Below, one piece after another: positions 34,349 to 63,935 of a stretch of 64,000 nucleotides of DNA (its first letter is position 1; every line of letters starts with the position of its first letter). The stretch is from Candidatus Bathyarchaeia archaeon (GTDB lineage Archaea; Thermoproteota; Bathyarchaeia; 40CM-2-53-6), in NCBI GenBank assembly GCA_049513715.1, contig JBEKVV010000004.1:32001-96000 (forward strand), given 5' to 3'. The notes under the pieces are model-generated. The model was given only the letters and a program-made list of their open reading frames with translations. It was not told where the DNA came from and did no database searches. The position numbers were made by a program, and so were the translations under genes.

Positions 34349-34738
34349 TTATATCAGATGGGACGCGGCTTTCATGAAGCGCATCAGGGTTGGATGAGAC
34401 TCCTCGGTGAGTTCTGCGACTCTCATCAGTTTGACGGCGTCGACGATCGATCCATTTATGGTGTATGCGCCAGAAGAGAAACCCTGGTCGAATTTCATTC
34501 TGCCTGTCATGACTTGGAAAAACTTCCCAGAGTCGGAGGTGAACACGAGATCTGGATTGTGGGTTTTACCAGCTCGACACGTAAAGTGGCCATCGACGAT
34601 CTCGATGAAAAATGGATCTTCTCCAGATAGTAGGAACTGGATCTTTCTGTCCCAGCCAATCAATATTGGCTTCACACTAGGGGTTCTATTTGTCATCCAA
34701 TTCAGGAAACGGAACGCCATTCCACATTTGCCGATCAT
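34349..34738 (-). CDS. SCP2 sterol/lipid-binding domain protein
   Basis: IQFLL...FIEIVDG...PDLVF...MTGRM...TINGS pattern. Confidence 0.7.
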   Translation of the reverse strand: MIGKCGMAFRFLNWMTNRTPSVKPILIGWDRKIQFLLSGEDPFFIEIVDGHFTCRAGKTHNPDLVFTSDSGKFFQVMTGRMKFDQGFSSGAYTINGSIVDAVKLMRVAELTEESHPTLMRFMKAASHLI

Positions 34739-34862
34739 CGACGGTTCGTTCTCAATGATGATGTGTTAGCTTACAAGTGTTTCCGGTCGTCAGTTATCCA
34801 GCGTATATAAAATACGTATGAAAGAATAATACGTGTGTGGTGTAGACTTCCGCGCGATTTCC

Positions 34863-36380
34863 TTGTATAAATGCTCATTATGTCAGAAAGAAATCCGTGA
34901 AGGGCAACGTCCTGACTACTCGCCCATAAGAGGAATGGTGCACTATGCATGTCATGTTGGCCTCATAAAGAGTGAAGTACCAACTACAACAGCAAACGAA
35001 ATCTCTAATGTGCCTTGGCTTGAATCACTGAATAAGATCGTGGGACCAGAAAATGTGAAGACCCTTTACTTGGAGCGAGCGTATTATTTCCGGGATCACT
35101 CCACAGATTTTATCGACCTCGCACATGGCCATGTGCCTGATGCTGTGGTACTCCCTACTAACGAAGATGAAGTGTCCCAGTTGGTGGCCTTTGCAGCCAA
35201 AGAAAAGATCGCGATAATTCCGAGAGGGTCGGGAACCGGGTTTATGGGGGGTTCTGTAGCCGTCGGCGGTGGAATAGTTGTGGACCTAACCGGAATGAGC
35301 AGGATTATCGAAATCGACGAACACAATTACCGTGTCACAGCCGAATCCGGAGCGAATATGCAAGCCGTCGAACACGAACTCAACAAGAAAGGTTTGACTC
35401 TTGGCTTTGACCCTGGAAGCATGCCAGCTGTGTCGATAGGCGGCTCTGTCTCCACAGATCAGATTGGTGGGGATGGTTGGTACAGCAATGTGGGGTCAAT
35501 GAGACACAGGGTCATGTGTCTGAGAGTGGTTCTACCCGATGGTGGTGTTGTCAGTACAGGGCGGATGGTAGATCGCTCCTCCTCGACGGTAAATCTAACC
35601 CAACTCTTCCTTGGTGCGGAGGGAGCATTCGGAATCGTTTCTCAAGTCACTCTTAGAGTCTTTCCTCTGCCGGAAACGACTGATTTGCGGGTCGTGGTTT
35701 TTGATAGTTTCCGGCAAGCCGCCGGTGCTACCATGGAAATGATGCGTGTTGGGGTTTGGCCTCCTATACATCATACCGTTGAGGTCGTGAGGCCCGACGA
35801 GTCATCTGACAATAATGTGGTGAACTCCTTCGGAATGCTTGTTCTTGGTTTCGCTGGGTCGAAGGAGGTTGTGGCTGCACAAAGGGAAAGAACGCTATCG
35901 ATATGTGTGTCAAACGGCGGAGTGGACGCGGGTAAGCAAGCAGCGAACGATTACTGGGAACGTCATCATGAAGCTTACCCGGCCAATCTTCCCGGTAACA
36001 AGGTTTACGGGATGGAGGTCGTGTCGCTTCCACTCACCAAAGTGCTCCCAGTTTATGACGAATTCTGCTCCACAATCAGAAAACATGGCATGCAAAGGTA
36101 CGGATCCGGATTTGGGCTATTCCCTACGACGATGTGGGTTGGATATATTTTTGACAATACCGAGGATGGGCTTAAGGTAAAGACGGCTGCCACTGAGGAG
36201 ATGCTGAAGGCAGCCACAGGAGCAGGCGGGACAATTTCTGGGGTCCATGGAGTCGGTTACATCAAGAGAGATTACTCTTCCTTTGAATTCGACAACGACC
36301 AGTTAGCGCTAATACGAAGGTTGAAGAAAGCGCTTGATCCAAACGGAATCATGAACCCTGGGAAGGGCCCCTACGCTTAA
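34863..36380 (+). CDS. FAD-linked oxidoreductase (GlcD/D-lactate dehydrogenase family) with N-terminal CxxC...HxxC finger
   Basis: PRGSGTG, DPGS, GAEGAFGIV, HGVG, DPNGIMNPGK; TTG 34863 preferred. Confidence 0.88.
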   Translation: MYKCSLCQKEIREGQRPDYSPIRGMVHYACHVGLIKSEVPTTTANEISNVPWLESLNKIVGPENVKTLYLERAYYFRDHSTDFIDLAHGHVPDAVVLPTNEDEVSQLVAFAAKEKIAIIPRGSGTGFMGGSVAVGGGIVVDLTGMSRIIEIDEHNYRVTAESGANMQAVEHELNKKGLTLGFDPGSMPAVSIGGSVSTDQIGGDGWYSNVGSMRHRVMCLRVVLPDGGVVSTGRMVDRSSSTVNLTQLFLGAEGAFGIVSQVTLRVFPLPETTDLRVVVFDSFRQAAGATMEMMRVGVWPPIHHTVEVVRPDESSDNNVVNSFGMLVLGFAGSKEVVAAQRERTLSICVSNGGVDAGKQAANDYWERHHEAYPANLPGNKVYGMEVVSLPLTKVLPVYDEFCSTIRKHGMQRYGSGFGLFPTTMWVGYIFDNTEDGLKVKTAATEEMLKAATGAGGTISGVHGVGYIKRDYSSFEFDNDQLALIRRLKKALDPNGIMNPGKGPYA

Positions 36381-36523
36381 TGCCTTTGCAAATCTAATAG
36401 TGCCTTCCTCTCATTTTCTCCTACCAAATGTTCCACCAACATTGACTAGCAATGGCGTATCGGCTTCGGGCAACTCCGAACAGCTTATAGGATTAGTGCG
36501 AGGCAGTCGACTAGCGATTGATT

Positions 36524-37261
36524 ATGTTTGATGGGATTCCAATTGTGGATGCTCACTGTCACATTGGCTATTTTGGCGGATGGGCCAATGTGGGAATTAC
36601 TTCCGAAGAACTGATGGCATTAAACAAGCAATTCAACGTGGTGCACTCGGTGGTGTTCACACAGCCAAACAGTTTGACTGCCGAAGCTGCAAAGAGATAC
36701 CCGCGTAACCTTACTGGTTATGTTTGGCTTAATCCGTTCGATGGAGACAAGGCCATCAGCGAGCTGCACACCGCGGTCAAAGAATGGGGCTGCAAGGGCG
36801 TAAAGCTGCATCCGCTGTTTCAGGCTTTCATCGCTGATGACCCGATAGTTTACCCAATAATGGATGAAGCCAGAAAACTCAAGATTCCTGTTGCCATTCA
36901 CTCTGGTCACCCGCCCTTTTCACTCCCATGGAGCATCGGCGAGTTGGCGGAGGTCTACCCGGACGTTACTGTTGTGATGCTTCATATGGGACACGGCCAC
37001 GGTCTATACATACGGGCAGCAATCAACGCGGCAAAGAGATACCCCAACATAGTTCTGGAGACATCTGGTATGCCAATGCACACCAAGATCAAAGAGGCAA
37101 TGGAGACCGTTGGAGAAGACCGGGTCATGTACGGATGCGATATTCCGTTTCATCATCCCTCCGTTGAACTCCAACGCATCAAGATGGCGGGACTAAATGA
37201 GAATCAGCTTCGAAAGATACTGCATGACAATGCAGTAGAAAAACTCGGTTTAATCTTCTGA
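36524..37261 (+). CDS. Amidohydrolase_2 family metal-dependent hydrolase/decarboxylase
   Basis: DAHCH, GVKLHP, IHSG, HMG, YGCDIP. Confidence 0.88.
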   Translation: MFDGIPIVDAHCHIGYFGGWANVGITSEELMALNKQFNVVHSVVFTQPNSLTAEAAKRYPRNLTGYVWLNPFDGDKAISELHTAVKEWGCKGVKLHPLFQAFIADDPIVYPIMDEARKLKIPVAIHSGHPPFSLPWSIGELAEVYPDVTVVMLHMGHGHGLYIRAAINAAKRYPNIVLETSGMPMHTKIKEAMETVGEDRVMYGCDIPFHHPSVELQRIKMAGLNENQLRKILHDNAVEKLGLIF

Positions 37262-37395: not shown

Positions 37396-38388
37396 TTATA
37401 TTACCGCAAAACGGCATTCGCAGTGTTTGGAGCATTGCCTTACCAGGTTCTCTCCTGACAAGTAGAGGTCTGTGCTGAAATACCTCTCAGTTCTGTCAGG
37501 TAGTAATGTCACCAGGCTCTTGTTGCGACCAATTTCATTGAGCACATTGATTGAAGCTAGCACGTTCGCTCCTGAGGAGACGCCGACCATCAGACCTAGG
37601 TTTCGTGAAAGTTGTTTCGCCATTTCCACTGCGTCATCGCTCTTGATTGCGACCACTTCGTCTACTTGGTTCATATTCACGATTTCTGGTATGAACCCGT
37701 CTCCGATGCCAGTAATCTTGTGGTCGTGGAGGTCCTTTCTGCCGGAGAGGACAGCTGCTTCTTCCGGTTCCACGGCGACCAAACGAAGTTTCGGGTTTTT
37801 CTCCCTGAGGGCCTTTCCGACGCCCATCAATGTTCCCCCCGTGCCAACGCCTGCCACAAAAGCGTCGATCGATTCAGTTCCCATTTGTTGAAGAATTTCT
37901 TTCCCTGTAGTGTTGTAGTGGGCCATGGTGTTGTCGGGGTTACTGAATTGGTTGGTCAGGAAATAGCGGTGGTCGCTTTCGGCTATCTTCGCGGCCCTTG
38001 CGACGGCTCCTTCAAAACCCTCGGCCTTAGGTGTCAGACAAAGCTCCGCTCCAAGGTTAGTCATTAGGCGGATTCGTTCCCCGGTCATATGTTCGGGCAT
38101 TACGACAAGCATTTTGTAGCCCTTTGCTGCGGCCACCATTGAAAGGGCTATGCCCGTGTTTCCGCTTGTCGCCTCGATGATAGTATAACCCGGTTTCAGA
38201 AGGCCTCGTTTCTCTCCTTGTTCTATCATGTATTTTGCGATGCGGTCCTTCACGCTCCCGCTTGGGTTCATAAATTCTAATTTCGCATGCATTCGACAGG
38301 TCCTGCCTTCAAAGTCTATGTTCAGGATTTGAAGGGGAGTGTTCCCCACGTAATTGAGAACTGATCCTTGCGATGTTAGTGACTTCAC
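37396..38388 (-). CDS. Cysteine synthase family PLP enzyme
   Basis: NPSGSVKDRIA, ATSGNTG, GVGTGGT, GIGDG; Cys-rich C-tail. Confidence 0.88.
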   Translation of the reverse strand: MKSLTSQGSVLNYVGNTPLQILNIDFEGRTCRMHAKLEFMNPSGSVKDRIAKYMIEQGEKRGLLKPGYTIIEATSGNTGIALSMVAAAKGYKMLVVMPEHMTGERIRLMTNLGAELCLTPKAEGFEGAVARAAKIAESDHRYFLTNQFSNPDNTMAHYNTTGKEILQQMGTESIDAFVAGVGTGGTLMGVGKALREKNPKLRLVAVEPEEAAVLSGRKDLHDHKITGIGDGFIPEIVNMNQVDEVVAIKSDDAVEMAKQLSRNLGLMVGVSSGANVLASINVLNEIGRNKSLVTLLPDRTERYFSTDLYLSGENLVRQCSKHCECRFAVI

Positions 38389-38409: not shown

Positions 38410-39360
38410 TTAGTGCTTCAAGTGTGGAAGGACCTCATCCGCAAACCATTTGATTTGCTTTTCCTGGTTATGAGAACTGAAGCGAATCGCGAAAACACGA
38501 GCTCCCGCATCGTGGAACGCGTTTATGATTTTCACCGCGTCCTTAGGCGACCCGAATGGTCCCCACCGGTCGAGTGGCGGCGCTGCACCATAGTACTTTG
38601 TGAGATAATCAACTGTTTCTGATTTGGCTTTGGATGAGTCATCGTTCAAGTTCATGGTCATGTAGAGCGACGAAATCATTTCTTTCTTCGGAGCGAATGA
38701 CTGAACTTTCGACAATCCTTCTTTGAATTCGTTAGGAAAAACTTCTGCCGACATCCAGCCATCGGTGAATCTAGCGGTTCGTTCGAAGGCTGTGGAGACC
38801 ATTCCACTTGACATTAGGATCTTAGGCCCACCTTCAGTATATGGTTTGGGATCTAGCGTCACATCTTGAAGGCTACAGGTTTTTCCTATGAAATTCACTC
38901 TCTCTTTGCTCCACAGCATCTTCATGACCTTCACGGTCTCATCAGTTCGGCTTATGCGCTGTTTGAAGGGAATGCCGCAACCCTCGAATTCTCTGCGATA
39001 GATTTCCATGGGCCCGCCCACACCAACACCGATTAGCAGCTTCCCAGCGGCAATCAGATCCAAAGTTGCAATCGCGTGCGCAAGAACTACCGGATGCCTT
39101 AGAGCGGGCAGCAGAACCGACATTCCGAGAGTTGATTTTGGACAAACAGCAGCCACCGCGGCCAAGGTTGTGAAAGGATCAAGTCGGGGTTTGGCCAGAA
39201 TACTGTCGCCGACCCAGAGCGAGTTAAACCCAGATTTCTCCGCGAGTTCAGCGAGGTCGAGGATGGTTCGAAAGTCTGGCTTCCCGCCCTTCTGCACGAG
39301 CCCTCTTGTGGGGAGCAAATATCCGTATGATGTTTCGTTATTCATGTCATCGCGTTCCAT
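38410..39360 (-). CDS. Luciferase-like (LLM), probably F420-dependent, oxidoreductase
   Basis: AEKSGFNSLWVGD, LRHPVVLAHAIATLD, GVGVG. Confidence 0.85.
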   Translation of the reverse strand: MERDDMNNETSYGYLLPTRGLVQKGGKPDFRTILDLAELAEKSGFNSLWVGDSILAKPRLDPFTTLAAVAAVCPKSTLGMSVLLPALRHPVVLAHAIATLDLIAAGKLLIGVGVGGPMEIYRREFEGCGIPFKQRISRTDETVKVMKMLWSKERVNFIGKTCSLQDVTLDPKPYTEGGPKILMSSGMVSTAFERTARFTDGWMSAEVFPNEFKEGLSKVQSFAPKKEMISSLYMTMNLNDDSSKAKSETVDYLTKYYGAAPPLDRWGPFGSPKDAVKIINAFHDAGARVFAIRFSSHNQEKQIKWFADEVLPHLKH

Positions 39361-39469: not shown

Positions 39470-40618
39470 ATGATTGAACCTCCTCGCACAATGATGTCGA
39501 CTGGGCCAGTGGAAGTTTCACCCCGAGTTCTCAGGGCACTTGGCACAAGAGTCATTCATCACAGCCGCCCAGAGTTCGGAAAGATATATGAAAAGATGCT
39601 AAGCGATTTGCAGGAAATTTGGAAGACAAAGAACGATATGGTGGTTCTCCACGGTGAAGGAATTATTGGCTTAGAATCCTCAATCGCATGCATGATTAAC
39701 CCGGGGCAGAAAATCATTGTGACCAGCGCGGGTGTCTTCGGTTCTTGGTTCAAGCAATTGATTGAATCACATGAAGGGGTTCCAATAGTTGTTGAAAGTG
39801 ACCCGAGCATGGAGCCAGACTTGGAAAGCGTGAAGACTGTTTTGGATGAGAATCCGGACGCTGCGTTGGTTGTGGGGGTTCACGGTGAAACTGTTGCGGG
39901 CATCGTGAATCCTGTGAACGAGATTTGCAGGTTGGCAAGGAAGAATGGCATTCTGACTGCTATCGATGCCATCGCCACAACTGGGGGGCAGGAGGTTCAG
40001 ACTGATGGATGGAAAATAGACCTGTGCATTGGCGCGAGCCAGCACTGCCTATCTGCACCCCCGGGCCTCACGCAAATCTCAGTTAGCGCGGAGGCGTGGG
40101 AGCAAATGGAGAAGAAGAAAAAGCCGATCAGAAATTCCTACCTGAGTATTCTGGATATGCGAGAAGCTTGGATCAAAGGGCACTACTTCCCCTACACCCC
40201 ATCAGTGTCTGGGGTTTACGCATTAGCCGAGTCATGCGCGGAAATCCTTGATGAAGGGTTAGAGAATGTGTTCCACCGTCACCATGACACTGCAGAAACT
40301 GTAAGGAGAGGCGTTGAGGGGATGGGTTTGAGGCTGTTTGCCGCTGACAAACGCTATGCATTGGACGTCAGCACCACTGTTCGATTGCCAGACGGCATAA
40401 ACGATACAGAATTGCTCGATGCGCTGGTAGCTCGCCATAGCGTTCTGCTTGCTGGTGGATTTAGGGAACTTAAGGGCAAGATCATTCGAATTGGGCATTC
40501 AGGGTACGCAGCTACAATATCCAACGCAATAGCAAGCTTGGCTGCGCTTGAAACCGAGTTCAGGCGGCTTGGGCACAAGTGCGCTCCTGGAAGCGCCGTC
40601 ACTGCCGCCCTATCGTAG
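39470..40618 (+). CDS. Class V aminotransferase-fold protein, pyridoxamine-pyruvate aminotransferase-like, catalytic Lys replaced by His
   Basis: LHGEG, DAIA, GASQHCLSAPPG, FPYTPSVS, RIGH. Confidence 0.8.
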   Translation: MIEPPRTMMSTGPVEVSPRVLRALGTRVIHHSRPEFGKIYEKMLSDLQEIWKTKNDMVVLHGEGIIGLESSIACMINPGQKIIVTSAGVFGSWFKQLIESHEGVPIVVESDPSMEPDLESVKTVLDENPDAALVVGVHGETVAGIVNPVNEICRLARKNGILTAIDAIATTGGQEVQTDGWKIDLCIGASQHCLSAPPGLTQISVSAEAWEQMEKKKKPIRNSYLSILDMREAWIKGHYFPYTPSVSGVYALAESCAEILDEGLENVFHRHHDTAETVRRGVEGMGLRLFAADKRYALDVSTTVRLPDGINDTELLDALVARHSVLLAGGFRELKGKIIRIGHSGYAATISNAIASLAALETEFRRLGHKCAPGSAVTAALS

Positions 40619-40735: not shown

Positions 40736-41581
40736 TTACGGGGGTTTGATTCCCATGAGATGATAGAGTATGTTTAGAGTGTAGATGATTCCGGGTTTCG
40801 GCGTGATGATTTGGATATAGTATCCGAGAATCATGGCTGCGATGCAGACTACTGTGGCGTAGTAGTCTAGGGGTTTGAATTTTAGCTCGTGCATGTAAGT
40901 TCGATTGGCTATATTTCCGAAGCCCTTTGATTCGATCGCCGCCGCAATCTGATAACCCCGGCGTATTGAGGTCATGATGATTGGAAAGAGTGTTGGGAGC
41001 ATTGCTCGAACTCGTCGCAGTGGATTTCGATACTCGAACACCCACCCGCGAGCTTTTTGGGCATCCATAATGTTGCCTACTTGTGTCACGAGGACTGGCA
41101 CGTAAGAGAAACCGATGCTTAGCGCAACGCCCAACTCCTTGGGCAACTTAAGCTTAACAAGAGCAAGGACATAGTCTGAAACAGTGGTTGTTAGAGTCAG
41201 AAGCCTGTACGCTGTCACCATCAGAATGAATCGTGCAACAACCCCTAAGGAGAACACGATTCCCTCCAGAGACACTGTATACCCATTAAGCATATACTGG
41301 GGTAGCAGGGAGAAGAACTTCGTTGGCCCAACATAAAACCACAGGTTCGTGAGGAAATAGAAAATCGAAATGGGGACGAGGCCTTTGTAAAGGGCTGACA
41401 TTTTGTTCCACGGAATCCGAGAAACTACGATTAAGAAGACAACGTTGGCGTACACTACAGTAAGTAGTATTGGATCGAACAGGAGTGCGCCGAGTACGAT
41501 GTTGGCTCCAAGCCACAGCAATTTTATTCTTGGGTCAAGCCTGTGCATCACTGAATTGCCTGGGTAGTATTCAAATGCCAT
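40736..41581 (-). CDS. ecfT: ECF transporter T component
   Basis: HRLDPRIK, AQKARG, AIESKGF. Confidence 0.92.
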   Translation of the reverse strand: MAFEYYPGNSVMHRLDPRIKLLWLGANIVLGALLFDPILLTVVYANVVFLIVVSRIPWNKMSALYKGLVPISIFYFLTNLWFYVGPTKFFSLLPQYMLNGYTVSLEGIVFSLGVVARFILMVTAYRLLTLTTTVSDYVLALVKLKLPKELGVALSIGFSYVPVLVTQVGNIMDAQKARGWVFEYRNPLRRVRAMLPTLFPIIMTSIRRGYQIAAAIESKGFGNIANRTYMHELKFKPLDYYATVVCIAAMILGYYIQIITPKPGIIYTLNILYHLMGIKPP

Positions 41582-43336: not shown

Positions 43337-43495
43337 TTTCTTGGAGTCACGCTGCTGCACGTCGGACTGTTTGTCTAAAAACGTGCCTATCGTTTGTCAG
43401 GTATAGTAATCCCGTTTTCGATGTATAGACACTCTATTCCATTTCTCACATTCATTATGATGGTGTTAAATACCATCACAGCGCAGTAGCGGTTA

Positions 43496-44062: not shown

Positions 44063-44067
44063 TTGAA

Positions 44068-55120: not shown

Positions 55121-55124
55121 AGTT

Positions 55125-56129
55125 ATGGTGAAATTCGGTGTACGTCTACCGAACTCAGGCCCGCTTGCGGCCGCCGATTCGATTCTGAAGAGCGCGGAAG
55201 TCGCTGAGAAACTAGGTTACGACTCAGTTTGGGTGCACGACCACATCACTTGGGGTACAGAGCAACACAGAGGCCACCTTTCATCGGGATCAGCTGAAGC
55301 CTTAAAGTCAGCTCAACTTCCGAACTTCTATGAATGTCTGACAACACTCGCGACCATAGCAGGAAGAACAAATTCGGTGAAGTTAGGCGTCGCCGTCGTC
55401 ATACTGCCCCTCCGAAACCCCGTCGTCTTCGCAAAGCAGACTTCAGTCATCGACGTACTATCTGGCGGGAGATTGCTCGTGGGCGTCGCTCCAGGGGCGC
55501 CGAAAATCACAGAAAAAGAGTTCGATACGATTGGCGTCGACTACCACAAGAGAGGCAAGATCACTGATGACTACATACAAGCCGTGAGAAAACTTTGGAC
55601 TGAGCCACTTCCAACGTACGAAGGAAAATTCATCTCTTTCAAGGAAGTTCAGATGTTTCCGAAACCAATCCAGAAACCTCACCCACCTATCTTGATTGGC
55701 GGCGGTGAAAGAGGTCTAAGCGACGTCGCAATGAAACGAGTGGTCGGGCTCGGGAATGGTTGGATACCCGCTTACCTGACAGAGGCCGAACTTGAGCAAG
55801 GCGCCAAGCAGCTGCGCGAGGGCGCGAAGAAAGCTGGCAGGGGTGGCGAGAAATTCATCGTAGGCTTGGAGATGTTTACCGGCCTGGGCCCATCCGACGA
55901 TGCGGCAAGAAACACTTTCTCAGCAACTCTGACCAAGAACTTCGTGTCCGTTGAGGAAGGGTTGAAACGAAGTCTAGTCGGCACATCAAAGACCATCACA
56001 AGGAGAATGGAAGCCTACGCGAATGCTGGACTCGATTATGTCGAGTTGAAGTTCATGTACTCGACAATCCCCGAGTTCCACGAAGAAATGGAAACCTTCG
56101 CGAAAGACGTGCTTCCATCATTCAAGTGA
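55125..56129 (+). CDS. LLM class, probably F420-dependent, oxidoreductase
   Basis: GYDSVWVHDH, LPLRNPVVFAKQ, SGGRL, PKPIQKPHPPILIGG. Confidence 0.88.
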   Translation: MVKFGVRLPNSGPLAAADSILKSAEVAEKLGYDSVWVHDHITWGTEQHRGHLSSGSAEALKSAQLPNFYECLTTLATIAGRTNSVKLGVAVVILPLRNPVVFAKQTSVIDVLSGGRLLVGVAPGAPKITEKEFDTIGVDYHKRGKITDDYIQAVRKLWTEPLPTYEGKFISFKEVQMFPKPIQKPHPPILIGGGERGLSDVAMKRVVGLGNGWIPAYLTEAELEQGAKQLREGAKKAGRGGEKFIVGLEMFTGLGPSDDAARNTFSATLTKNFVSVEEGLKRSLVGTSKTITRRMEAYANAGLDYVELKFMYSTIPEFHEEMETFAKDVLPSFK

Positions 56130-56205: not shown

Positions 56206-58044
56206 CTATGTCAAACCCAGTGACTTGAGCTTTGCTTTGGTTGGAACGCCTTGTTCGTCCCATGCTCTCAGTGTGTAGCATGTGTCCAACATCTTGCTCA
56301 CGTTGCAAGTCTGGCCCTTAGCAGTTCCATCGGGCATCGGTTCAAGGAAACGGTCTGGAATCGTGTCGTCTTTTCTGGTGTAACCCTCCCTTAGGTTGAA
56401 GAGCCTCTCAAGGTTCACGATTCTCTCACCAACTTTCACCATCTCCGCATAACTCTGCTTCATGCCAGTTGCGTCGCGGATTAGACGTTCAATGACTTCA
56501 GGGCTGAATCCGAAATCCAAGCAGAAATCGCAAAACACGGCCGAGTCGATTGGTGCGGCTGTGAAATCTTGGAAATCTACCACCCACTTCACTTTGTTGG
56601 CGTCTTCAGAAAACCTGTCCACGGGTTGGGGCACGCCGAAGAGCTCGACGGCAATGGTCCACCCGTCGTTGTGGTCTGCGCCGCGCGATGCGGTTGCATA
56701 GTTCAACCCGATTCCTTTGGCGCCTCTTGGGTCGTAACCGGGCATCTCTAGACCTTTCACCTGCATCGCATATTTCCATGCGTCCCCGCCTAGTTTCTCG
56801 GCCGCGACTTTGACGCCTTCAGCGAGAATGTTACCGATTCCCTCCCTGCGCGCGATTCTTTCGACAAGCCATAGCAAGGCCTCATCATTGCCGAAATTCA
56901 GTTTCATTCCACTAGTCTGTTGATCAGTTATGATGCCTCTCTCGTAGCATTCCATGGCAAAGGAGGTCACTACACCTGTTGAAATTGTGTCCATTCCATA
57001 TTGGTCACACAGAAGATTAGCGTGGGCGATGGTTTCGAAGGATGGAATCCCGCAGTTCGCCCCCAGAGCGAAAATGTTCTCGTGCTCAGGGCGGTCGGTC
57101 CTGATTCCGGCATGAGGGCCTTCCTTCACTTCGATCCACTTTGAGCAAAGGACTCTGCATCCCCAGCAGTGAACGAAGCCGCGGTTTGTGTAGTGGGTGT
57201 TAATGTACGTGGCGTCTATGTTATCCACCGAGTCGAAATATCCAGTCTGAAAGTTCCTGGTGGGCATCAACCCCATCTCATTCACAACTGAGACGGAACC
57301 TGTTGTTCCCGCTTCTTTGAAGACCTTGACGACTTCGTTATTGTCCACAATTTTGTTGATCCAAAGCAGCGTCTCTCGCCATGTATCCCGGTGCAAATAA
57401 GTCTCCACTCTGCCCGAGCCTTGAACGGCGAATGCTTTCAAGTTCTTTGAGCCCATCACTGCGCCCGGCCCACATCTGGCAGCAGCGGCGTGTTTGTCGC
57501 TCATGATTGCGGCGATCTTGACTAGGTGCTCGCCGGCCGGGCCGACTGAGGCAACCCTTAGCGTAGGCTTTGAACCCAGTTCCTTCATCACAGCCTCTTC
57601 AGTCTGATGAGTGGTCTTTCCCCACAGGTGCGACGCATCCTTGATTTCCACTTGGCCGTCATGGAGGTACGCGTAAACCTTCTTCTCAGATTTCCCATCG
57701 AAAATGACCCCGTCGTACCCAGCGAATTTGATGTTGGGGCCAAGGTGCCCACCGCAATAACCAACGGAAATGGTCCCAGTGGAGGGAGACTTCATTCCGA
57801 CCGTGTACTTTCCGGTAAGTGGAACGTTCGTCCCTGCTAGGGGACCAGTCATGAAGATCAGTTTGTTCTCGGGCCCAAGCGGGTCTGCGTGAGGGGGAAG
57901 TTCATCGTAGAGGATCTTGGCGATGAACCCTCTACCGCCCATCCACTTGTCGGCGAACTCGTTATCGATTATTTTCTCCGATGTTTTTCGTGTTGTGAGG
58001 TCGACCCGTAGAAGCTTCCCTACATACCCTTTGTAGTCTGTCAA
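56206..58044 (-). CDS. aor: Tungsten aldehyde:ferredoxin oxidoreductase family, copy 2 (612 aa)
   Basis: Same motifs as copy 1; TTG 58044 preferred. Confidence 0.92.
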   Translation of the reverse strand: MTDYKGYVGKLLRVDLTTRKTSEKIIDNEFADKWMGGRGFIAKILYDELPPHADPLGPENKLIFMTGPLAGTNVPLTGKYTVGMKSPSTGTISVGYCGGHLGPNIKFAGYDGVIFDGKSEKKVYAYLHDGQVEIKDASHLWGKTTHQTEEAVMKELGSKPTLRVASVGPAGEHLVKIAAIMSDKHAAAARCGPGAVMGSKNLKAFAVQGSGRVETYLHRDTWRETLLWINKIVDNNEVVKVFKEAGTTGSVSVVNEMGLMPTRNFQTGYFDSVDNIDATYINTHYTNRGFVHCWGCRVLCSKWIEVKEGPHAGIRTDRPEHENIFALGANCGIPSFETIAHANLLCDQYGMDTISTGVVTSFAMECYERGIITDQQTSGMKLNFGNDEALLWLVERIARREGIGNILAEGVKVAAEKLGGDAWKYAMQVKGLEMPGYDPRGAKGIGLNYATASRGADHNDGWTIAVELFGVPQPVDRFSEDANKVKWVVDFQDFTAAPIDSAVFCDFCLDFGFSPEVIERLIRDATGMKQSYAEMVKVGERIVNLERLFNLREGYTRKDDTIPDRFLEPMPDGTAKGQTCNVSKMLDTCYTLRAWDEQGVPTKAKLKSLGLT

Positions 58045-58168
58045 CGGCAGGTCTGCGTAGTCAAGGAAGAAATTTCCTATATAACATATGCCATGCGGCG
58101 AAGCCGCAGTTGACTCCATTTAGAATGCAGAATGGAAAGGTTGGGTGAAGAGAAAAAGGGAATGGGTT

Positions 58169-58531
58169 TTACTCGGCGTTCTTGGTCGGGGGGTACTCTG
58201 GATGTGAGAACGTGTACACCATTACCACATCATTAGGTCCATCATTCCGCACTCCGTGTGCAACTCCAGGTGGAATATAGACCGCCGAATTCGGGCCGAA
58301 CTCAATATCGCCGTCCTTCAGCGTGATTTTGCCTTTGCCTGAAATTATGAATGCACATTCCTCTTCGGTGTGAATTTTCTTTTCGGTGTTCGCGCCAGGC
58401 TTGAATGTGGAGAAGCCTAACATCATTTTCTTAGTGCCAATCGTTTTGTTTGAGAGTAATTCGATGAGCCAGCTACCGCCAGGGAGTGTCGTTCGAATTC
58501 CCTCCTCTGACCGAACTACCTTTACCTGCAT
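58169..58531 (-). CDS. Cupin domain protein
   Basis: IHTEEE...ISGKG, YIPPGVAHGVRN. Confidence 0.85.
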   Translation of the reverse strand: MQVKVVRSEEGIRTTLPGGSWLIELLSNKTIGTKKMMLGFSTFKPGANTEKKIHTEEECAFIISGKGKITLKDGDIEFGPNSAVYIPPGVAHGVRNDGPNDVVMVYTFSHPEYPPTKNAE

Positions 58532-58558: not shown

Positions 58559-58999
58559 TTAGCCGAATTTGTTAATGCTTTTTTCGCCTTTGATGTCGGA
58601 TGTCCAGTGGAAGTCTTCGCCCTTCTTGACCTTCTCTTCCTCTTCCTCGGCAGCCTTGACTGCCTCGCTACCACCGTCGACCCACGTAGCCCAGCCTGCC
58701 AGCCAGATGCAAAGTGAAACGGCTTCTTGAACCTCTCTTGGAGTCGCTCCCAGCCGAACTGCCTTTCGCGCATGGCTTCGGCCTTTTTCGCCGCGGCCGG
58801 TCGCTACTTCTACAGCTGTGATGATCAGTTCCTTGTACTTCTCAGATATTGCGCCTTCCACGCCCTTCGGTGGGAGTGTTGCTTTTCGAATCTTGATAAA
58901 TCCCTCAACGATTTCTGAGCTGTACTTGTCCATGTGTTCGAAGACGGGATGCATGCGCCCAAACTTTTCGAGAATGTACTTCTTCGTTTCTTCATTCAT
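58559..58999 (-). CDS. Carboxymuconolactone decarboxylase (CMD/AhpD-like) family protein
   Basis: ISEKYKELI...SHARKAVRLGATPREVQEA; no CxxC. Confidence 0.82.
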   Translation of the reverse strand: MNEETKKYILEKFGRMHPVFEHMDKYSSEIVEGFIKIRKATLPPKGVEGAISEKYKELIITAVEVATGRGEKGRSHARKAVRLGATPREVQEAVSLCIWLAGWATWVDGGSEAVKAAEEEEEKVKKGEDFHWTSDIKGEKSINKFG

Positions 59000-59116
59000 C
59001 GCGGATCATTGGTGGCTTAATATTCAGCTGCTTAGATTTCCTGCCAGTGGTTTCTGTAAGCGGCTTATATGCGGTGGTCTTAAATAATCAGTTTCGTCCG
59101 TGACCATGTGATTTTA

Positions 59117-60115
59117 ATGGTTTCATTCGAAGCCGCAATCAAGGAAGCGAAACTTGCGATTGAACATTGTTATTCAGTAAAGAAAGGAGAGAACGTCGCC
59201 ATACTGACCGACCAGGATCATATGGTTGAAGCAAAAGCATTGGCCGCTGTCGCCGGACAATTCGCCGCGAACGTGGTCATGCTGGACGCGTCGGCGTACG
59301 TTCAATCAGGAATGCTGATGGCCGGCATCCCAGAACCTCCGTCGCACATTTCTGCTATGATGGAAAAAACTCAGGTCTTCATCATCAAAACCGAAATGGA
59401 CTTCGCACATAGATTTGCACACACAGATGCTGCCAGAATAGTTGAACGCAACAAAGGAAGAATAGCGTCGGTCGAGGAGGACATGGGAACGTGGGGAATC
59501 GAGTACGATTATCTGGTTGAAACAAAAGAGCGGACGGCGAAGCTTGGAGCAATTACGGGCAAAGCCGACAAGATACACATCACTTCTACCAAAGGGACAG
59601 ATATTACGCTCTCTATCAAGAATCGCCCAGCCCTCGTAATAGTACCCCAACGAGCGCCCGGAGACGTAATGTCTCCTTTACCATTGTGGGGAGAAGTCGC
59701 ACACTCAATCATCGAGGACTCGGGGAATGGAGTCGTTGTAGCGGACGGAATCGCGAATGCGGTCGCGAACAACGGCCTCAAGGAGCCTATCAAATACAAA
59801 GTCAAGAACGGAAGGGCCTATGACTACCAAGGTGGAGACGAAGCGAAGCGCTGGGAAGCCATAATCAAAGCCGCAGACGAGAACGCGAACGTGTTATGCG
59901 AATTCGCCGTTGGAACAGGCCGAAGGGAACGGTGGAACACCGTCTCGGAGAAGGGAGCCTTAGGAACAATCCATCTCGCTCTCGGAGAAAACGCAGGGCC
60001 CTACCCGGGCGGTAAGAACCACAGCAAAGTGCATTTGGATGTCACCCTCCGATTTCCAACAGTTGAAGTTGACGGCAGAGTCGTCATTGACAAAGGCATC
60101 CTCAAACTAGACTAG
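59117..60115 (+). CDS. M29 aminopeptidase-like / NicX-like metalloprotein
   Basis: VKKGENVAILTD, GTDI, GEV, EFAVGT, GTIHLALG, HLD. Confidence 0.75.
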   Translation: MVSFEAAIKEAKLAIEHCYSVKKGENVAILTDQDHMVEAKALAAVAGQFAANVVMLDASAYVQSGMLMAGIPEPPSHISAMMEKTQVFIIKTEMDFAHRFAHTDAARIVERNKGRIASVEEDMGTWGIEYDYLVETKERTAKLGAITGKADKIHITSTKGTDITLSIKNRPALVIVPQRAPGDVMSPLPLWGEVAHSIIEDSGNGVVVADGIANAVANNGLKEPIKYKVKNGRAYDYQGGDEAKRWEAIIKAADENANVLCEFAVGTGRRERWNTVSEKGALGTIHLALGENAGPYPGGKNHSKVHLDVTLRFPTVEVDGRVVIDKGILKLD

Positions 60116-60176
60116 CACTACGTGACCAAGTCGTGCATGATTCAGATTCACCTCCTGTTCAGTATCGGTGAAAGTC

Positions 60177-61118
60177 ATGAAAGTCGAAGACGTCAAGACA
60201 GTCTCAATTATTGGCGCGGGCCTAATGGGCCACGGAATCGCCCAGGTTTTCGCGCAGGCAGGATACAATGTCCTCCTGAGAGACATTAAGCAAGAGTTCT
60301 TATTGAATGGCGTCAGCAAAATGAAAGAGAACCTTCAGAAATTGTCAGCGGCCGGCCTCGTTCGGAAGGAAGAAATCGATGCCACCATATCCAGGGTGAA
60401 AACAACGCTCGACATGCAGGAAGCCTTAACGAATTCTGACTTCATGATTGAAGCCGCAACCGAAAACATAGACCTAAAGAAACAGATCTTCAGGGAAGCC
60501 AGCAAATTCGCCCCCGAACGCGCTGTTCTGGCGACCAACACTTCCGGCTTGCCAATCCTTGATATCGCTGGAGTCACAAACCGGCCTGGCAAGATTATTG
60601 GGACGCATTTCTGGAACCCGCCGTACTTACTCCGCGCCGTGGAAGTCGTCAAAGGAGCCGGCACGACAGATGAGACCGTCAAAGTGACCTACGACCTCCT
60701 TACAAAAGTAGGCAAGAAACCTGTAGTCGTGAAAAAGGACATTCCTGGACAAATCGGGATCAGAATTCTCTACGCAATGCTTAGGGAAGCAATATCTCTA
60801 GTTGAGAAGGGAGTTGCTTCGCCCGAGGACATAGATACGGTCGTGAAGGAAGCATTGGGAACTCGATTGCCGGTCGTCGGCGTCTTAGAGTTAGCAGACT
60901 TGTCGGGCGTCGACTTAGTTCTGATGGTATCCAAACGATTGTTCAAGGATTTGGACAATTCTCCGGAACCCTCAAAGTTCCTCACAGATATGGTCGCAGA
61001 CGGTCACACTGGGATCAAGAGCTTGAAAGGTTTCTACAGCTGGACGCCTCAAAGTGTTGCATCCATCGTCAAGAAGCGGGATGAACACTTACTTAGAATC
61101 CTGAAGGATCAAGCATAG
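60177..61118 (+). CDS. 3-hydroxyacyl-CoA dehydrogenase family protein (FHMPC 5-dehydrogenase-like)
   Basis: GAGLMG, TNTSGLP, HFWNPP...VE, PVVVKKDIPG, LYAMLREA. Confidence 0.85.
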   Translation: MKVEDVKTVSIIGAGLMGHGIAQVFAQAGYNVLLRDIKQEFLLNGVSKMKENLQKLSAAGLVRKEEIDATISRVKTTLDMQEALTNSDFMIEAATENIDLKKQIFREASKFAPERAVLATNTSGLPILDIAGVTNRPGKIIGTHFWNPPYLLRAVEVVKGAGTTDETVKVTYDLLTKVGKKPVVVKKDIPGQIGIRILYAMLREAISLVEKGVASPEDIDTVVKEALGTRLPVVGVLELADLSGVDLVLMVSKRLFKDLDNSPEPSKFLTDMVADGHTGIKSLKGFYSWTPQSVASIVKKRDEHLLRILKDQA

Positions 61119-61203: not shown

Positions 61204-62637
61204 TTGCACAAGCTTTTCATCAACGGAGAGAACGTTGACTCCGCGAGCGGAGCAACCTACCAGATTCGAAACCCAGCAACATCTGAGCTGGTCGATACTG
61301 TCGCAAAAGGTAATGCCGATGACGCAAAGAAAGCGATCGACGCGGCTGAGGACGCGCTCGAGAAGTGGTCAGATTCAGCGCCCACACAAGCGCCCGGTGT
61401 CTTGAGCAAAGCTGCGCAACTCATCAGAACAAACGAGCAAGAGCTCGCTACGCTGCTGACAAAGGAGCAAGGTAAGACGCTACCAGAATCGTTGGGTGAA
61501 ATCAGGTTCTTCGCTAAGACTCTAGAATACTATTCCGGCGCTAAGATCACTGGTTCATACGTAACATTGACCGACAGAGTTTCCGCTGAAGTTGTGAAGG
61601 AGCCGGTAGGCATCGTCGGAGGCATCGTTCCATGGAACAACCCAGTTATGCTCATGGGTGCTAAGGTTGTGTCATCGATCAAGTCAGGCGACGCAATAAT
61701 AATCAAACCTGCTACTACAACGCCACTCAGCACGATTAGATGTGCTCAGATTCTTAGCGAAGCAGGCCTTCCGAAAGGCATCTTCAACGTGGTTCCCGGG
61801 CTAGGAAGCGTTGTTGGAGAGGAGCTGCTGAGAAATCCCAAGGTAAGAAAAATCTCTTTCACTGGTGAAAGCGAGACCGGGAAGCACATAATGGAGGTCG
61901 CGGCCCGCGACCTCAAACGAGTCACACTTGAATTGGGTGGTAGCAACCCGGTGATCGTCGCAGACGACGCCGACCTGGAAGCGGCAGTTGACAATACCCT
62001 TTTCGGACGGTTCCGAAACTGCGGCCAAGGCTGCATGTGCATAAAGCGAGCTTACGTGTTCGAGAAAGTAGCAGACTCGTTCATCAAAAAGCTGGTTGAC
62101 AAAGTGAAGGCGATAAAAGTCGGCAACGGCCTTGTCCAAGGCGTCAACATGGGCCCAATCCACTCAGCTTCCCAAAGGGAAGGATTCGAGGAACAAGTTA
62201 ACGATGGCATCAGCAAAGGCGCCAAGGTTTTGACGGGCGGCAAACGGCCAACCGGGCCAGAATACGACAGTGGGTTCTTCTACCTACCAACGCTCCTCGA
62301 GAACGCGGACCCGAGTTCGAAAGTTGTAAGGGAGGAAGTCTTCGGTCCAGCGTTACCCATCTTCCGAGTGAAGGACATGGAAGAGGCCGTGAAGCTCGGC
62401 AATGATTCAATCTACGGTCTAGGTGCTCACCTGTGGACTAGGGACATACAGAGAGCAATGAAGGCAGCGAGGAAACTCAAGGCTGGAACAATTCTTGTGA
62501 ACACCGCATACGGCTCAGGCGGCTGGGAAATCGAGGTACCTATGGGCGGCTTCAAACACAGCGGTATCGGTCGCGAGTACGGAATCGAGGGCATGAGCCA
62601 GTACCAAGAAATGAAAACCATCGTCTACGGTACCTAG
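61204..62637 (+). CDS. NAD(P)-dependent aldehyde dehydrogenase (succinate-semialdehyde dehydrogenase-like)
   Basis: PWN, ISFTG, LELGG, FRNCGQGC, EEVFGP, GGFKHSGIGRE. Confidence 0.88.
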   Translation: MHKLFINGENVDSASGATYQIRNPATSELVDTVAKGNADDAKKAIDAAEDALEKWSDSAPTQAPGVLSKAAQLIRTNEQELATLLTKEQGKTLPESLGEIRFFAKTLEYYSGAKITGSYVTLTDRVSAEVVKEPVGIVGGIVPWNNPVMLMGAKVVSSIKSGDAIIIKPATTTPLSTIRCAQILSEAGLPKGIFNVVPGLGSVVGEELLRNPKVRKISFTGESETGKHIMEVAARDLKRVTLELGGSNPVIVADDADLEAAVDNTLFGRFRNCGQGCMCIKRAYVFEKVADSFIKKLVDKVKAIKVGNGLVQGVNMGPIHSASQREGFEEQVNDGISKGAKVLTGGKRPTGPEYDSGFFYLPTLLENADPSSKVVREEVFGPALPIFRVKDMEEAVKLGNDSIYGLGAHLWTRDIQRAMKAARKLKAGTILVNTAYGSGGWEIEVPMGGFKHSGIGREYGIEGMSQYQEMKTIVYGT

Positions 62638-62723
62638 AGGCCAAGACTCCGCCCCACTCTTCTCTTTCTCAACAGACTCACCGGCACAACATGCCGGGTG
62701 AAGCCCTTATCGGGGTTCCTTTG

Positions 62724-63935
62724 CTACTGTTTTCCTTCGCAGATCCACAGGCTCATGAGTCCGTAGATTTTGGCGAATGTTAGCAGGCTGGCGAGTGAGA
62801 CGTTCTCATTTGGGCCGTGGGCGTTACTCTGGGTGTCGTCGCCTGGACCGAAGCCGCACAATGTTGGAATCTTTGCGTCGTTGATCAGTAGTCGTGAGTC
62901 GTTTGTTCCGTAGCCTCCCCGAAACTCTGGTTCATATCCTGTAACTAGTTTAGTAGCTCGTTTCGCAACTTGAACGAGGTAGTGGTCCATGGGAATTTCT
63001 GCGGGTGCCCCCCAGATGACGTTCGTAATATTCGCAGTGAGCCCCGGGTTTTCTTTCTGGATGCGATCGATCACGTCTCTGACGGATGAGAGTACTTCGT
63101 TCTTATTCATCCCTGGGACGGTTCTGATATCCACATCCGCATAGCACTCTGGGGGAATCACGTTCGTCTTGATTCCGCCACGAATTACGGTCCCTGGTGA
63201 AATTGTCGGTGAAGGCAGTATTTTGTGGGGCTCGTGTGGCAGTCGTAAGTGCTCCAGAGCTAACAGTAGCTTGCTCATGCCGAGGATGGCGTTTACGCCG
63301 TTTGCTGGGTTGCTTGCATGCGCGGCCCGTCCCACGGTTTTCACTGTGAGCCAGCAAATCCCCCTAACGGACGGGCGAATGTAGATTGACTCTTTGGCAA
63401 CTGAGCCTTCGGCGACAATTGCCAGATCTGCCTTGGCCAGATTTTTTTTGACCATGTATTTCGTTCCTAACGAGTTGGCTTCCTCGTCAGCAACAGCGTG
63501 CAACACAACATCTCCCCTAAGAGGCAGATCGGAGTCTGCCAGAGCTCTTAGGGCGATAACCATTGACGCAAGCGCACCTTTCATGTCAGCTGAGCCTCGT
63601 CCCCATATTCTCGTTCCATCGAACTCGCCCGCGAACGGATCCTTCTTCCATAGTTCTCTGGGCCCTGCAGGAACTACGTCTGTATGGCCGTTGAAAAGAA
63701 TCGACCGGCCCCCACCTTTACCGCGAAGGGTAGCGGCAACATTGATTCGTTTACTCGCAACCTCATACTGATCTACTTCGAACCCAATCTCAGACAACAC
63801 GCCAGAAAGTAACTGGGCGACGTCTTGCTCGTCTCCAGGTGGGTTCTCGCTCGGTATCCGAATGAGCTTCTGAACGAGGTCGAGAAGGTTCGGCTTCAGC
63901 CTCTCAACTTGGTTCAGTACTGAATCCTCAAGCAT
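62724..63935 (-). CDS. M20 (ArgE/DapE-like) metallo-amidohydrolase
   Basis: NGHTDVVP, GRGSADMKG, DEE, AE, AHGPNE. Confidence 0.9.
   Translation of the reverse strand: MLEDSVLNQVERLKPNLLDLVQKLIRIPSENPPGDEQDVAQLLSGVLSEIGFEVDQYEVASKRINVAATLRGKGGGRSILFNGHTDVVPAGPRELWKKDPFAGEFDGTRIWGRGSADMKGALASMVIALRALADSDLPLRGDVVLHAVADEEANSLGTKYMVKKNLAKADLAIVAEGSVAKESIYIRPSVRGICWLTVKTVGRAAHASNPANGVNAILGMSKLLLALEHLRLPHEPHKILPSPTISPGTVIRGGIKTNVIPPECYADVDIRTVPGMNKNEVLSSVRDVIDRIQKENPGLTANITNVIWGAPAEIPMDHYLVQVAKRATKLVTGYEPEFRGGYGTNDSRLLINDAKIPTLCGFGPGDDTQSNAHGPNENVSLASLLTFAKIYGLMSLWICEGKQ

Follow-up and report, generated by a model that had tools for sequence, protein, structure and literature searches.

This study concerns a cluster of catabolic genes in a 64,000-nucleotide stretch of DNA (here called the window; positions 32,001 to 96,000 of contig JBEKVV010000004.1, GenBank assembly GCA_049513715.1) from a Candidatus Bathyarchaeia archaeon, the genome of which measures 2.79 Mb in 11 contigs and is 99.4% complete with 8.8% contamination. 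Around AT1, a class V aminotransferase resembling pyridoxamine-pyruvate aminotransferase (PPAT), lie two tungsten-type aldehyde:ferredoxin oxidoreductases (AORs), a molybdenum (Mo) hydroxylase, a luciferase-like oxidoreductase (LLM) dependent on coenzyme F420, a metalloprotein resembling NicX and genes for transport (Table 1). The cluster is conserved and real. We read it as an accessory, horizontally shared gene set that takes up unphosphorylated vitamin B6 (pyridoxamine or pyridoxal), or a very close 3-hydroxypyridine analogue, and breaks it down without oxygen, a reading whose chances we regard as evenly balanced, and it is plausible that the cluster represents a new anaerobic variant of B6 catabolism. 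An earlier, sequence-only reading had proposed an oxygen-independent island for the breakdown of B6 or a pyridine ring at 34349-63935; its PPAT side, the co-occurrence of its genes and the NicX fold hold up, whereas its FHMPC dehydrogenase and succinic semialdehyde dehydrogenase (SSADH) do not.

Thirty-one open reading frames (ORFs) within 28863-63935 were scanned against Pfam and NCBIfam, and 27 of them carry a Pfam family at E ≤ 1e-5; at this threshold no family was found for 31427-32248, 32448-34028, 43496-44062 or 44026-44430. All families named by the sequence-only reading were recovered at or near the places given for them. Its description of a catabolic block free of housekeeping genes stands as far as the catabolic families go, but a CysK-type cysteine synthase, arguably a housekeeping gene, interrupts them; this gene, an SCP2-domain protein, a broken Ord-like gene and two small membrane proteins in the cluster region were absent from its list. 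The conserved cluster also begins upstream of the island as first drawn, where a phosphoesterase and a permease, both outside its coordinates, travel with the other genes. The remark that no flavin ring oxygenase could be recognised agrees with our Pfam scans of the window, which found no such enzyme and no glucose-methanol-choline (GMC) oxidase or short-chain dehydrogenase/reductase (SDR) either, no search being aimed at a lactonase or an alpha/beta-hydrolase. A tRNA scan of the window found none.

Table 1. Genes of the cluster and its surroundings; coordinates refer to the window.
Feature	Coordinates	Strand	Family evidence and remarks
AT1, PPAT-like class V aminotransferase	47201-48355	+	Aminotran_5; Gly-Glu at phosphate site, catalytic Lys present
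AT2, divergent PPAT-like paralogue	39470-40618	+	Aminotran_5; His replaces Schiff-base Lys
NicX-like (M29-fold) metalloprotein	59108-60115	+	Weak Peptidase_M29 match; candidate pyridone ring opener
Three-subunit Mo hydroxylase	51456-55120	+	FAD subunit 51456-52337, 2Fe-2S subunit 52338-52823, Mo subunit ~52826-55120
LLM2, F420-dependent luciferase-like oxidoreductase	55125-56129	+	TIGR03619 190.6 bits, above cut-off 166.9
AOR1, tungsten-type aldehyde:ferredoxin oxidoreductase	49427-51583	-	AFOR_N E 1e-81, AFOR_C E 1e-136
AOR2, aldehyde:ferredoxin oxidoreductase	56206-58119	-	AFOR_N and AFOR_C
Small cupin	58169-58531	-	Cupin_2 E 6.9e-15; most constant AT1 neighbour
Carboxymuconolactone decarboxylase/AhpD-like protein (CMD)	58559-58999	-	PF02627 E 4.1e-11
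Amidohydro_2 protein	36518-37261	+	PF04909 E 1e-32
3-Hydroxyacyl-CoA-dehydrogenase-family (HAD-family) NAD enzyme	60168-61118	+	3HCDH
NAD(P) aldehyde dehydrogenase (ALDH)	61204-62637	+	Aldedh E 1.6e-152
FAD-linked oxidase/dehydrogenase, D-lactate-dehydrogenase-like	34833-36380	+	FAD_binding_4 and FAD-oxidase_C; 5/29 loci
Calcineurin-like phosphoesterase	30259-31218	-	Metallophos_2 E 6.3e-6
526-aa polytopic permease, candidate substrate importer	32448-34028	+	Weak APC-type; TIGR00909 E 1.1e-6, far under cut-off
Energy-coupling factor (ECF) module	40736-43360	-	T component 40736-41581 (CbiQ); fused A/A' ATPase 41582-43360 (ABC_tran twice)
188-aa membrane protein, candidate ECF S component	43496-44062	+	Weak PF12822 match, E 0.0059
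SCP2-domain small protein	34349-34738	-	PF02036 E 4.6e-8; 5/29 loci
LLM1, luciferase-like oxidoreductase	38410-39360	-	Bac_luciferase E 3e-41; TIGR03619 140.7 bits, below cut-off 166.9
CysK-type cysteine synthase	37396-38388		TIGR01136 375.6 bits, cut-off 344
Ord-like (2,4-diaminopentanoate dehydrogenase family) gene, broken	44639-45658	-	In-frame TGA at 45005-45007
M20a, ArgE/DapE-family deacylase	45655-46980	-	TIGR01910 237 bits, above cut-off 217.6; peripheral
M20b, ArgE/DapE-family deacylase	62724-63935	-	TIGR01910 286 bits; peripheral
EamA-family transporter	48426-49397	-	EamA twice; peripheral
Mo/W support genes	22680-30005		Two MoeA, PBP_like/HTH regulator, TupABC-like tungstate transporter (Pfam)

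Both aminotransferases of the cluster fall on the PPAT side of the class V family. Among PDB sequences, AT1 (227 bits; next match 181) and AT2 (238 bits; next match 194, with PucG second) are each closest to 2z9u, and the entries 2Z9U-2Z9X are, according to two papers (PMC6797613, PMC6698932), structures of the Mesorhizobium PPAT. The PPAT model NF046070 (EC 2.6.1.30) is the top NCBIfam match of both proteins (327.6 bits for AT1, 301.6 bits for AT2), and AT1 is about 38% identical to PPAT. Gly-Glu replaces the phosphate-binding motif, in that QGEG and HGEG in AT1 and AT2 align to HGEP/QGEP of PPAT, at a position where canonical enzymes (AGT, PucG, SgaA, BhcA) carry S/G-T/S-G. We placed these proteins in a tree of 43 rows (quick IQ-TREE maximum-likelihood search, SH-aLRT support, arbitrary root), for which the PPAT references came from plasmids: a Rhizobium daejeonense gene annotated 'pyridoxamine--pyruvate transaminase' and two close relatives. 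Gly-Glu is present in 34/34 rows of the PPAT-side clade as against 0/9 rows of AGT/SgaA/BhcA/PucG type, and the 34, with the annotated PPAT among them, are split from the nine canonical rows at 99% SH-aLRT, and the AT1 clade is joined to PPAT and AT2 at 84%. From this split and their placement on the PPAT side, it follows that AT1 and AT2 do not group with AGT/SgaA, the placement that the sequence-only reading had set up as the opposite of its own.

In PPAT, Lys197 forms the Schiff base and Asp171 contacts the ring nitrogen, as stated in a recent review (PMC9309667). AT1 retains the equivalents of both residues; AT2 retains the Asp and has His for the Lys, reading SQH where its relatives read SQK or PNK in 4/4 alignments and in the motif table. 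Of Arg336 and Arg345, the carboxylate-binding residues of PPAT, only Arg345 has an equivalent in AT1 and AT2 in the motif table. AT2 also sits on a long branch (1.13), and its best match in the other genomes of the genus (20 searched, the window's own included) is only 44% identical. Judged by its sequence, AT2 is a lineage-specific copy and probably not a normal transaminase, and it may act as a binding protein or pseudo-enzyme. The notion of two PPAT-type aminotransferases is therefore borne out in the placement of both but not in the active site of AT2, which lacks the catalytic Lys. The closest named relatives of AT1 are from Candidatus Bathyarchaeia (92% identity), and its family comprises at least 5,705 proteins at E ≤ 1e-20 among 8,000 candidates scored. 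A database protein of 214 residues, which has the same source as the window, matches a portion of AT1 with 100% identity at 56% coverage, and the original gene call seems to have been shorter than the intact 384-codon frame.

The association of AT1 with its neighbours was assessed across species. With one genome kept per species, 32 loci were obtained (numbered here with the prefix L), 29 with an AT1-clade gene (52-84% identity) and three PucG-like controls, and partners were sought in them by tblastn with the window proteins. The AT1-clade hosts belong to Bathyarchaeia, Nitrososphaeria/Nitrososphaerales, Pelearchaeum, Spirochaetota and Aerophobetes and represent four phyla. At least one core partner occurs in 22/29 loci and at least three in 14/29, as against 0/3 controls; because the same partners recur in 22 loci and in none of the controls, the clustering exceeds chance. 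The cupin is the most frequent partner (15 of the 29), followed by the NicX-like gene (11), LLM (9), Amidohydro_2 (9), the Mo subunit (8), AOR (7), the permease (7), and the phosphoesterase, CMD, HAD-family enzyme and ALDH (6 each); the permease mostly adjoins the Amidohydro_2 gene. Gene order varies from lineage to lineage; common descent by itself is therefore a less likely cause of the association than selection for it. Within the genus, AT1 orthologues (at least 82% identity) and NicX-like orthologues (at least 88%) are found in the same 4/20 genomes; these four carriers are kin, so their shared presence counts as one observation. The expectation that the genes would co-occur in other genomes is thus supported across four phyla and within the genus.

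The content of these related loci separates a core from its surroundings. Bacterial versions hold a helix-turn-helix-cupin regulator, ferredoxin, two AORs, a dihydroorotate dehydrogenase (DHOdh)/4Fe-4S reductase, a UbiD decarboxylase, a HAD-family enzyme, a NicX-like protein and a cupin; L018, L033 and L034 have two AORs at the flanks of the cluster, and an alanine dehydrogenase adjoins the AT1 homologue in L019. M20 and EamA genes are found in 0/29 loci each, CysK gave one weak match, and the Ord-like gene, LLM1 and AT2 lie outside the conserved set, so that the proposed island is conserved in its core but not in its M20, EamA, CysK, Ord-like and AT2 genes. One locus, L007 (DATIYC010000154.1), is labelled Candidatus Acidiferrales (Acidobacteriota), yet its copy of the cluster follows the gene order of the window with 70-87% protein identity; the contig is probably archaeal and misbinned. 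Purine degradation by xanthine dehydrogenase, PucG, cupin and M20, suggested by PucG as the second PDB match of AT2, was considered and ruled out, since PucG-type enzymes keep G-T-S, are separated from AT1 and AT2 in the tree and, in three loci, share no neighbours.

The same comparison bears on the most conventional account, in which an ordinary Bathyarchaeon ferments peptides and amino acids, with aminotransferases yielding 2-oxo acids, AORs and ALDH oxidising aldehydes, M20 enzymes trimming peptides, and a merely coincidental likeness to B6 metabolism. Such a role would suit the M20 deacylases and the permease as well as CysK, EamA and the Ord-like gene, AT1 is publicly named 'alanine--glyoxylate aminotransferase family', and curated cut-offs for B6 enzymes are unreached. 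However, M20, Ord, CysK and EamA are exactly the genes missing from related loci, and the tree sets AT1 and AT2 apart from AGT/SgaA. The genome holds three Gly-Glu-type genes, the third at 311964-313085 of another contig, C3, and two canonical AGT-type genes elsewhere that each keep a phosphate motif (S-G-T-G or G-T-G). A NicX fold, a Mo hydroxylase and decarboxylases would moreover have no role in peptide fermentation, and we consider this account very improbable.

The NicX-like protein is a candidate link between the cluster and pyridine chemistry. By sequence, it matches no PDB chain at E ≤ 0.01, and it is about 24% identical to a rhizobial gene annotated NicX. An AlphaFold model built from 11 homologues has a pLDDT of 80.7, and its best fold match is the 2,5-dihydroxypyridine dioxygenase of Pseudomonas putida, 7cn3/7cup (7cn3_A, E 5.7e-21, TM 0.78/0.75), whereas the M29 aminopeptidases PepS, AmpS and AmpT fit less well (target-normalised TM 0.53-0.64). 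The suggestion of an M29/NicX-like protein at this position is in this way confirmed on its NicX side. The two proteins are of similar length (332 versus 348 residues), but hosts of the NicX-like protein are anaerobes, and two of the four iron-ligand positions of NicX differ. The family also has an extra invariant His, as in M29 hydrolases, and its sequences possibly point to a changed metal site with hydrolytic chemistry.

Several further enzymes are consistent with chemistry that proceeds without oxygen: the two tungsten-type AORs, the F420-dependent LLM2, which scores over its cut-off, and the Mo hydroxylase; UbiD, ferredoxin and a reductase of DHOdh type come on top of these in the bacterial versions. 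In the PDB, the Mo subunit scores highest against 4-hydroxybenzoyl-CoA reductase (426 bits) and also matches nicotinate dehydrogenase (L and M subunits, 269 + 195 bits). LLM2 lies directly downstream of the Mo enzyme and follows the Mo subunit also in L007, L012 and L013. Because an N-terminal extension of about 105 residues in the AOR1 frame overlaps the divergent Mo-FAD gene, AOR1 probably starts near 51268, at a non-ATG codon. The best PDB match of the Amidohydro_2 protein is 5-carboxyvanillate decarboxylase (48 bits), and that of the FAD-linked oxidase is the D-lactate dehydrogenase 8jdb (199 bits).

Two specific assignments of the sequence-only reading fared less well. The HAD-family enzyme, which had been taken for FHMPC dehydrogenase, scores higher as Hbd both in NCBIfam (263 bits, versus 234.1 bits for the FHMPC dehydrogenase model NF042925, with neither cut-off reached) and in the PDB (Hbd 6aa8, 201 bits, versus FHMPC dehydrogenase 4om8, 187 bits), and its sequence appears about equally distant from the two. 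On plasmids, no FHMPC dehydrogenase annotation was found among the 40 matches listed, and no protein passes the cut-off on four PPAT-bearing plasmids; the best plasmid match, from Aminobacter, lies inside an unrelated aromatic cluster. The ALDH, read as SSADH, is not specific: BADH scores 461 bits and the SSADH model TIGR01780 scores 420.9 bits (cut-off 646), both under their cut-offs.

In Mesorhizobium loti, B6 degradation pathway I comprises PPAT, pyridoxal dehydrogenase, lactonase, 4-pyridoxate dehydrogenase, FHMPC dehydrogenase, HMPDC decarboxylase, MHPC oxygenase and AAMS amidohydrolase. The window shares with it an entry enzyme of the PPAT branch (with Gly-Glu, Lys and Asp), a HAD-family dehydrogenase, one or more decarboxylases and an aldehyde dehydrogenase, but has tungsten AORs, the Mo hydroxylase, the F420-dependent LLM and the NicX-like protein in place of the oxidase, SDR and oxygenase. 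The anaerobic fermentation of nicotinate by Eubacterium barkeri proceeds by Mo hydroxylation, ring reduction and hydrolytic opening; it resembles the window in a water-derived Mo hydroxylation followed by reduction and hydrolysis, and its nicotinate dehydrogenase matches the Mo subunit. In contrast to E. barkeri, the window holds no enamidase-type, B12-mutase or dimethylmalate genes in Pfam scans, and has an F420-dependent LLM reductase and entry by a transaminase.

A third likeness comes from rhizobial plasmids. PPAT clusters are present in Rhizobium daejeonense (NZ_CP048425.1, 118860-149942), Rhizobium sp. ACO-34A (CP021372.1, 61464-92558) and Ochrobactrum quorumnocens (NZ_CP022605), with genes annotated as 2,5-dihydroxypyridine 5,6-dioxygenase, CMD family, metallo-beta-lactamase-type (MBL) lactonase, SDRs, HpaB-like monooxygenase, flavin reductase and two amidases, and in ACO-34A also as pyridoxine 4-oxidase, a GMC oxidase. 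A BMP-type ABC transporter flanks the annotated PPAT, just as such transporters adjoin the aminotransferase in L013, L017 and L033. These clusters look like the aerobic counterpart of the window gene set: PPAT, NicX-family and CMD-family genes stand together in both, but the rhizobial sets depend on oxygen (GMC oxidase, HpaB-like monooxygenase with flavin reductase, amidases), where the window has AOR, Mo and F420 enzymes instead. They may encode an aerobic B6 pathway via a dihydroxypyridine intermediate, which we did not find described.

The host itself appears unable to make the vitamin. PdxS, PdxJ and a PdxK-type kinase were not detected in its 99.4%-complete genome (Phos_pyr_kin reached 28.8 bits only), and PdxS was found in 0/19 genomes of the genus and in 2/12 others of the order; the lineage thus appears to be auxotrophic for B6 and to depend on an outside supply. 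Five other carriers of the cluster aminotransferase gave a similar picture, with PdxS in 0/5, PdxJ in 1/5 and a kinase above cut-off in 0/5. Auxotrophy means that a salvage role competes with pure catabolism, and, given no recognisable synthesis of pyridoxal 5'-phosphate (PLP), the early part of the route probably supplies cofactor salvage as well. Two functions may then simply adjoin one another: a B6 salvage module of aminotransferase, transporter and phosphoesterase for an auxotroph without PdxH, and a separate pathway for N-heteroaromatic or aromatic compounds, for example aldehydes from lignin or pyridines of the nicotinate or picolinate type. The missing synthesis genes favour such a division, both in the host and genus and in the four of five other carriers that lack PdxS and PdxJ together. 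In L017, the aminotransferase is accompanied by a BMP transporter only, and the third Gly-Glu paralogue, on C3, lies near an ECF module of its own (A, A' and T), a Metallophos phosphoesterase, an AsnC-type regulator and a 193-aa protein without Pfam match, with no catabolic genes. A Mo hydroxylase, an Amidohydro_2 decarboxylase and NicX together also resemble described gene clusters for picolinate and nicotinate, and the two nearest PDB matches of the Mo subunit are a further point in favour. Yet the aminotransferase stays beside the NicX-like, cupin, CMD, Mo and AOR genes in four phyla despite rearranged orders; annotated PPAT, NicX and pyridoxine 4-oxidase share one cluster in aerobic rhizobia; and salvage also requires a kinase, of which none was found. 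We therefore regard two separate functions as rather unlikely, and retain B6 breakdown, with some salvage in its first steps, as the preferred reading.

Uptake genes provide a further link to B6. The fused ATPase of the ECF module scores over the cut-offs of ECF_ATPase_1 and ECF_ATPase_2, and homologous modules (41-43% identity) adjoin AT1 homologues in L011, L012, L019 and L029. In three of the 29 loci (L011, L012 and L029), the gene that separates the aminotransferase from the NicX-like protein encodes an S component of PF07155, of which the only PDB match is 4hzu_S (E 1.9e-19). The 4HZU structure is the Lactobacillus brevis transporter ECF-HmpT/PdxU2, for which pyridoxamine was identified as substrate and found bound by mass spectrometry (PMC4860826); PdxU and PdxU2 are likewise placed in PF07155 (PMC9997740). 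The window resembles this system in having ECF T and A/A' components near an aminotransferase, but no relationship to HmpT could be detected for its own candidate S component (43496-44062), whose Atlas feature matches to S-component clusters (0.91-0.92) serve as a lead and no more. A PF07155 protein on C3 has no similarity to the HmpT-like S component either.

HmpT also opens the question of a different substrate, since the same paper records that it was first predicted to carry hydroxymethylpyrimidine (PMC4860826). The PPAT-like enzyme could then act on another aminomethyl heteroaromatic compound, such as the thiamine-derived 4-amino-5-aminomethyl-2-methylpyrimidine. A dihydroorotate/dihydropyrimidine-dehydrogenase-like reductase in the bacterial versions, an NMT1/THI5-like binding protein 11 kb downstream, the modest identity of AT1 to PPAT and its changed Arg336 are consistent with this possibility. 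Against it stand the pyridoxamine found in HmpT, the rhizobial clusters with an annotated pyridoxine 4-oxidase, and the fact that the ring enzyme is closest in structure to a protein with a pyridine substrate; on balance, we think such a substrate improbable and B6 the better candidate.

A number of observations nevertheless weigh against B6 breakdown. No cluster protein passes a curated NCBIfam cut-off for a B6 enzyme: AT1 and AT2 stay below the equivalog cut-off of 600 bits for NF046070, and the HAD-family enzyme reaches 234 bits where FHMPC dehydrogenase requires 500. The position of PPAT Arg336 is Tyr in AT1 and Phe in AT2. Glu68 of M. loti PPAT reportedly blocks the PLP phosphate and so confers specificity for pyridoxal (Yoshikane and colleagues, 2008), a role that our text search did not recover; and the Gly-Glu clade includes stand-alone genes of Haloferax, Halomarina and Peptoclostridium without catabolic neighbours. 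NicX needs O2, and only two of its four Fe(II) ligands (His, Ser, His, Asp) align with the window protein in the rhizobial alignment, where H-x-D is shared, the first His is replaced by the invariant Glu262 and the Ser by Ala/Leu.

Distribution and uptake add to these objections. Seven of the 29 loci have no core partner, although four of the seven are short contigs of 2.6-6.1 kb. Among 81 genomes of the class, the NicX-like gene occurs in nine, the aminotransferase in 18 and both in four, where about two would be expected by chance, an uninformative comparison that concerns distant homologues only. The NicX-like gene is absent from two of the five other aminotransferase-carrying genomes, which would also suit a separate salvage module. 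The ECF module of the window comes without a recognisable HmpT-type S component, 43496-44062 shows no similarity to its counterpart in L012, and tblastn found no HmpT-like gene in the genome; ECF systems, besides, suit uptake of traces rather than bulk catabolism. Finally, breakdown of B6 is odd for an auxotroph without PdxS, PdxJ and PdxK.

From the families, folds, motifs, tree and synteny observed, we infer a substrate, an order of steps, their chemistry and their independence of oxygen as follows. Phosphorylated vitamers would be stripped of phosphate by the phosphoesterase, a candidate vitamer phosphatase, and imported by the ECF, permease or BMP transporters. AT1 would convert pyridoxamine and pyruvate to pyridoxal and alanine, after which an AOR could oxidise pyridoxal to 4-pyridoxate with reduction of ferredoxin. 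The HAD-family enzyme, with the second AOR or the ALDH, may turn the 5'-hydroxymethyl group into a carboxylate. Carboxyl groups would then be removed by the Amidohydro_2 protein (and UbiD or CMD), the former acting as a non-oxidative decarboxylase of a hydroxy-pyridine carboxylate. Hydroxylation at C6, beside the ring nitrogen, could be carried out by the Mo enzyme with water, to give a 2,5-dihydroxypyridine-type ring, which LLM2 would reduce with F420H2 (in bacteria, the DHOdh/4Fe-4S reductase). Ring opening would fall to the NicX-like metalloprotein, which probably uses water and not O2, and downstream amide and aldehyde steps would lead into central metabolism.

Taken to its limit, this proposal describes a complete oxygen-free route for B6 mineralisation in uncultured archaea (Bathyarchaeia, Nitrososphaeria) and anaerobic bacteria (Spirochaetota, Aerophobetes), in which AORs would replace the oxidases, a Mo hydroxylase the flavin oxygenase, F420 or DHOdh enzymes would reduce the ring, a NicX fold with an M29-like site would hydrolyse the pyridone, and auxotrophic carriers would use one cluster both to scavenge and to burn a vitamin shared in anoxic sediments and soils. 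We put this forward tentatively, with the chances somewhat against it.

To our knowledge, B6 breakdown has been described only in a few aerobic bacteria, where it depends on oxygenases. In the literature that we searched, which covered sources other than subscription papers, there was no anaerobic B6 degradation, archaeal PPAT or B6 route via a dihydroxypyridine dioxygenase, and a 2022 review gives PPAT as known only from bacteria and a plant (PMC9309667). If the present reading is correct, the cluster would represent a new anaerobic pathway for N-heterocycles, provide a function for many proteins that now go by the name 'alanine-glyoxylate aminotransferase family', a large branch, and suggest that the NicX fold may also act without oxygenolysis. 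It would also describe organisms that both need and consume a traded vitamin, a matter of interest when the exchange of cofactors in peat, soil and sediments is modelled. The PPAT-NicX clusters of rhizobia, for their part, point to an undescribed aerobic variant in strains that can be cultured.

Other features of the window and its surroundings lie outside the proposed pathway. The two halves of the Ord-like gene correspond to positions 2-212 and 216-333 of NF040740, and the site of its in-frame TGA is Trp in 9/9 homologues from the genus, which indicates a single TGG-to-TGA change and rules out selenocysteine. The gene is probably a pseudogene, or the change a sequencing error. Ornithine fermentation through Ord and a PALP enzyme was dropped as an explanation, since the PALP gene proved to be CysK and the reading frame of the Ord-like gene is interrupted.

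Directly upstream of the cluster, the MoeA and TupABC-like genes fit a local supply of W/Mo cofactor for a region rich in W/Mo enzymes, although the TupA model there reaches 172.9 bits, under its cut-off of 400. One of the two MoeA genes is fused to a PBP-like domain. Just past the window, 95951-110750 of the same contig holds a cytoplasmic [NiFe] hydrogenase set (HycI, large and small, NAD-binding and 4Fe-4S subunits), together with an NMT1/THI5-type ABC transporter and a second three-subunit Mo hydroxylase. At the other end, three consecutive ORFs with glutamate-synthase domains at 4729-10068 on the plus strand (Glu_synthase twice, then GATase_6 with GXGXG) look like a split, archaeal-type GltB arrangement.

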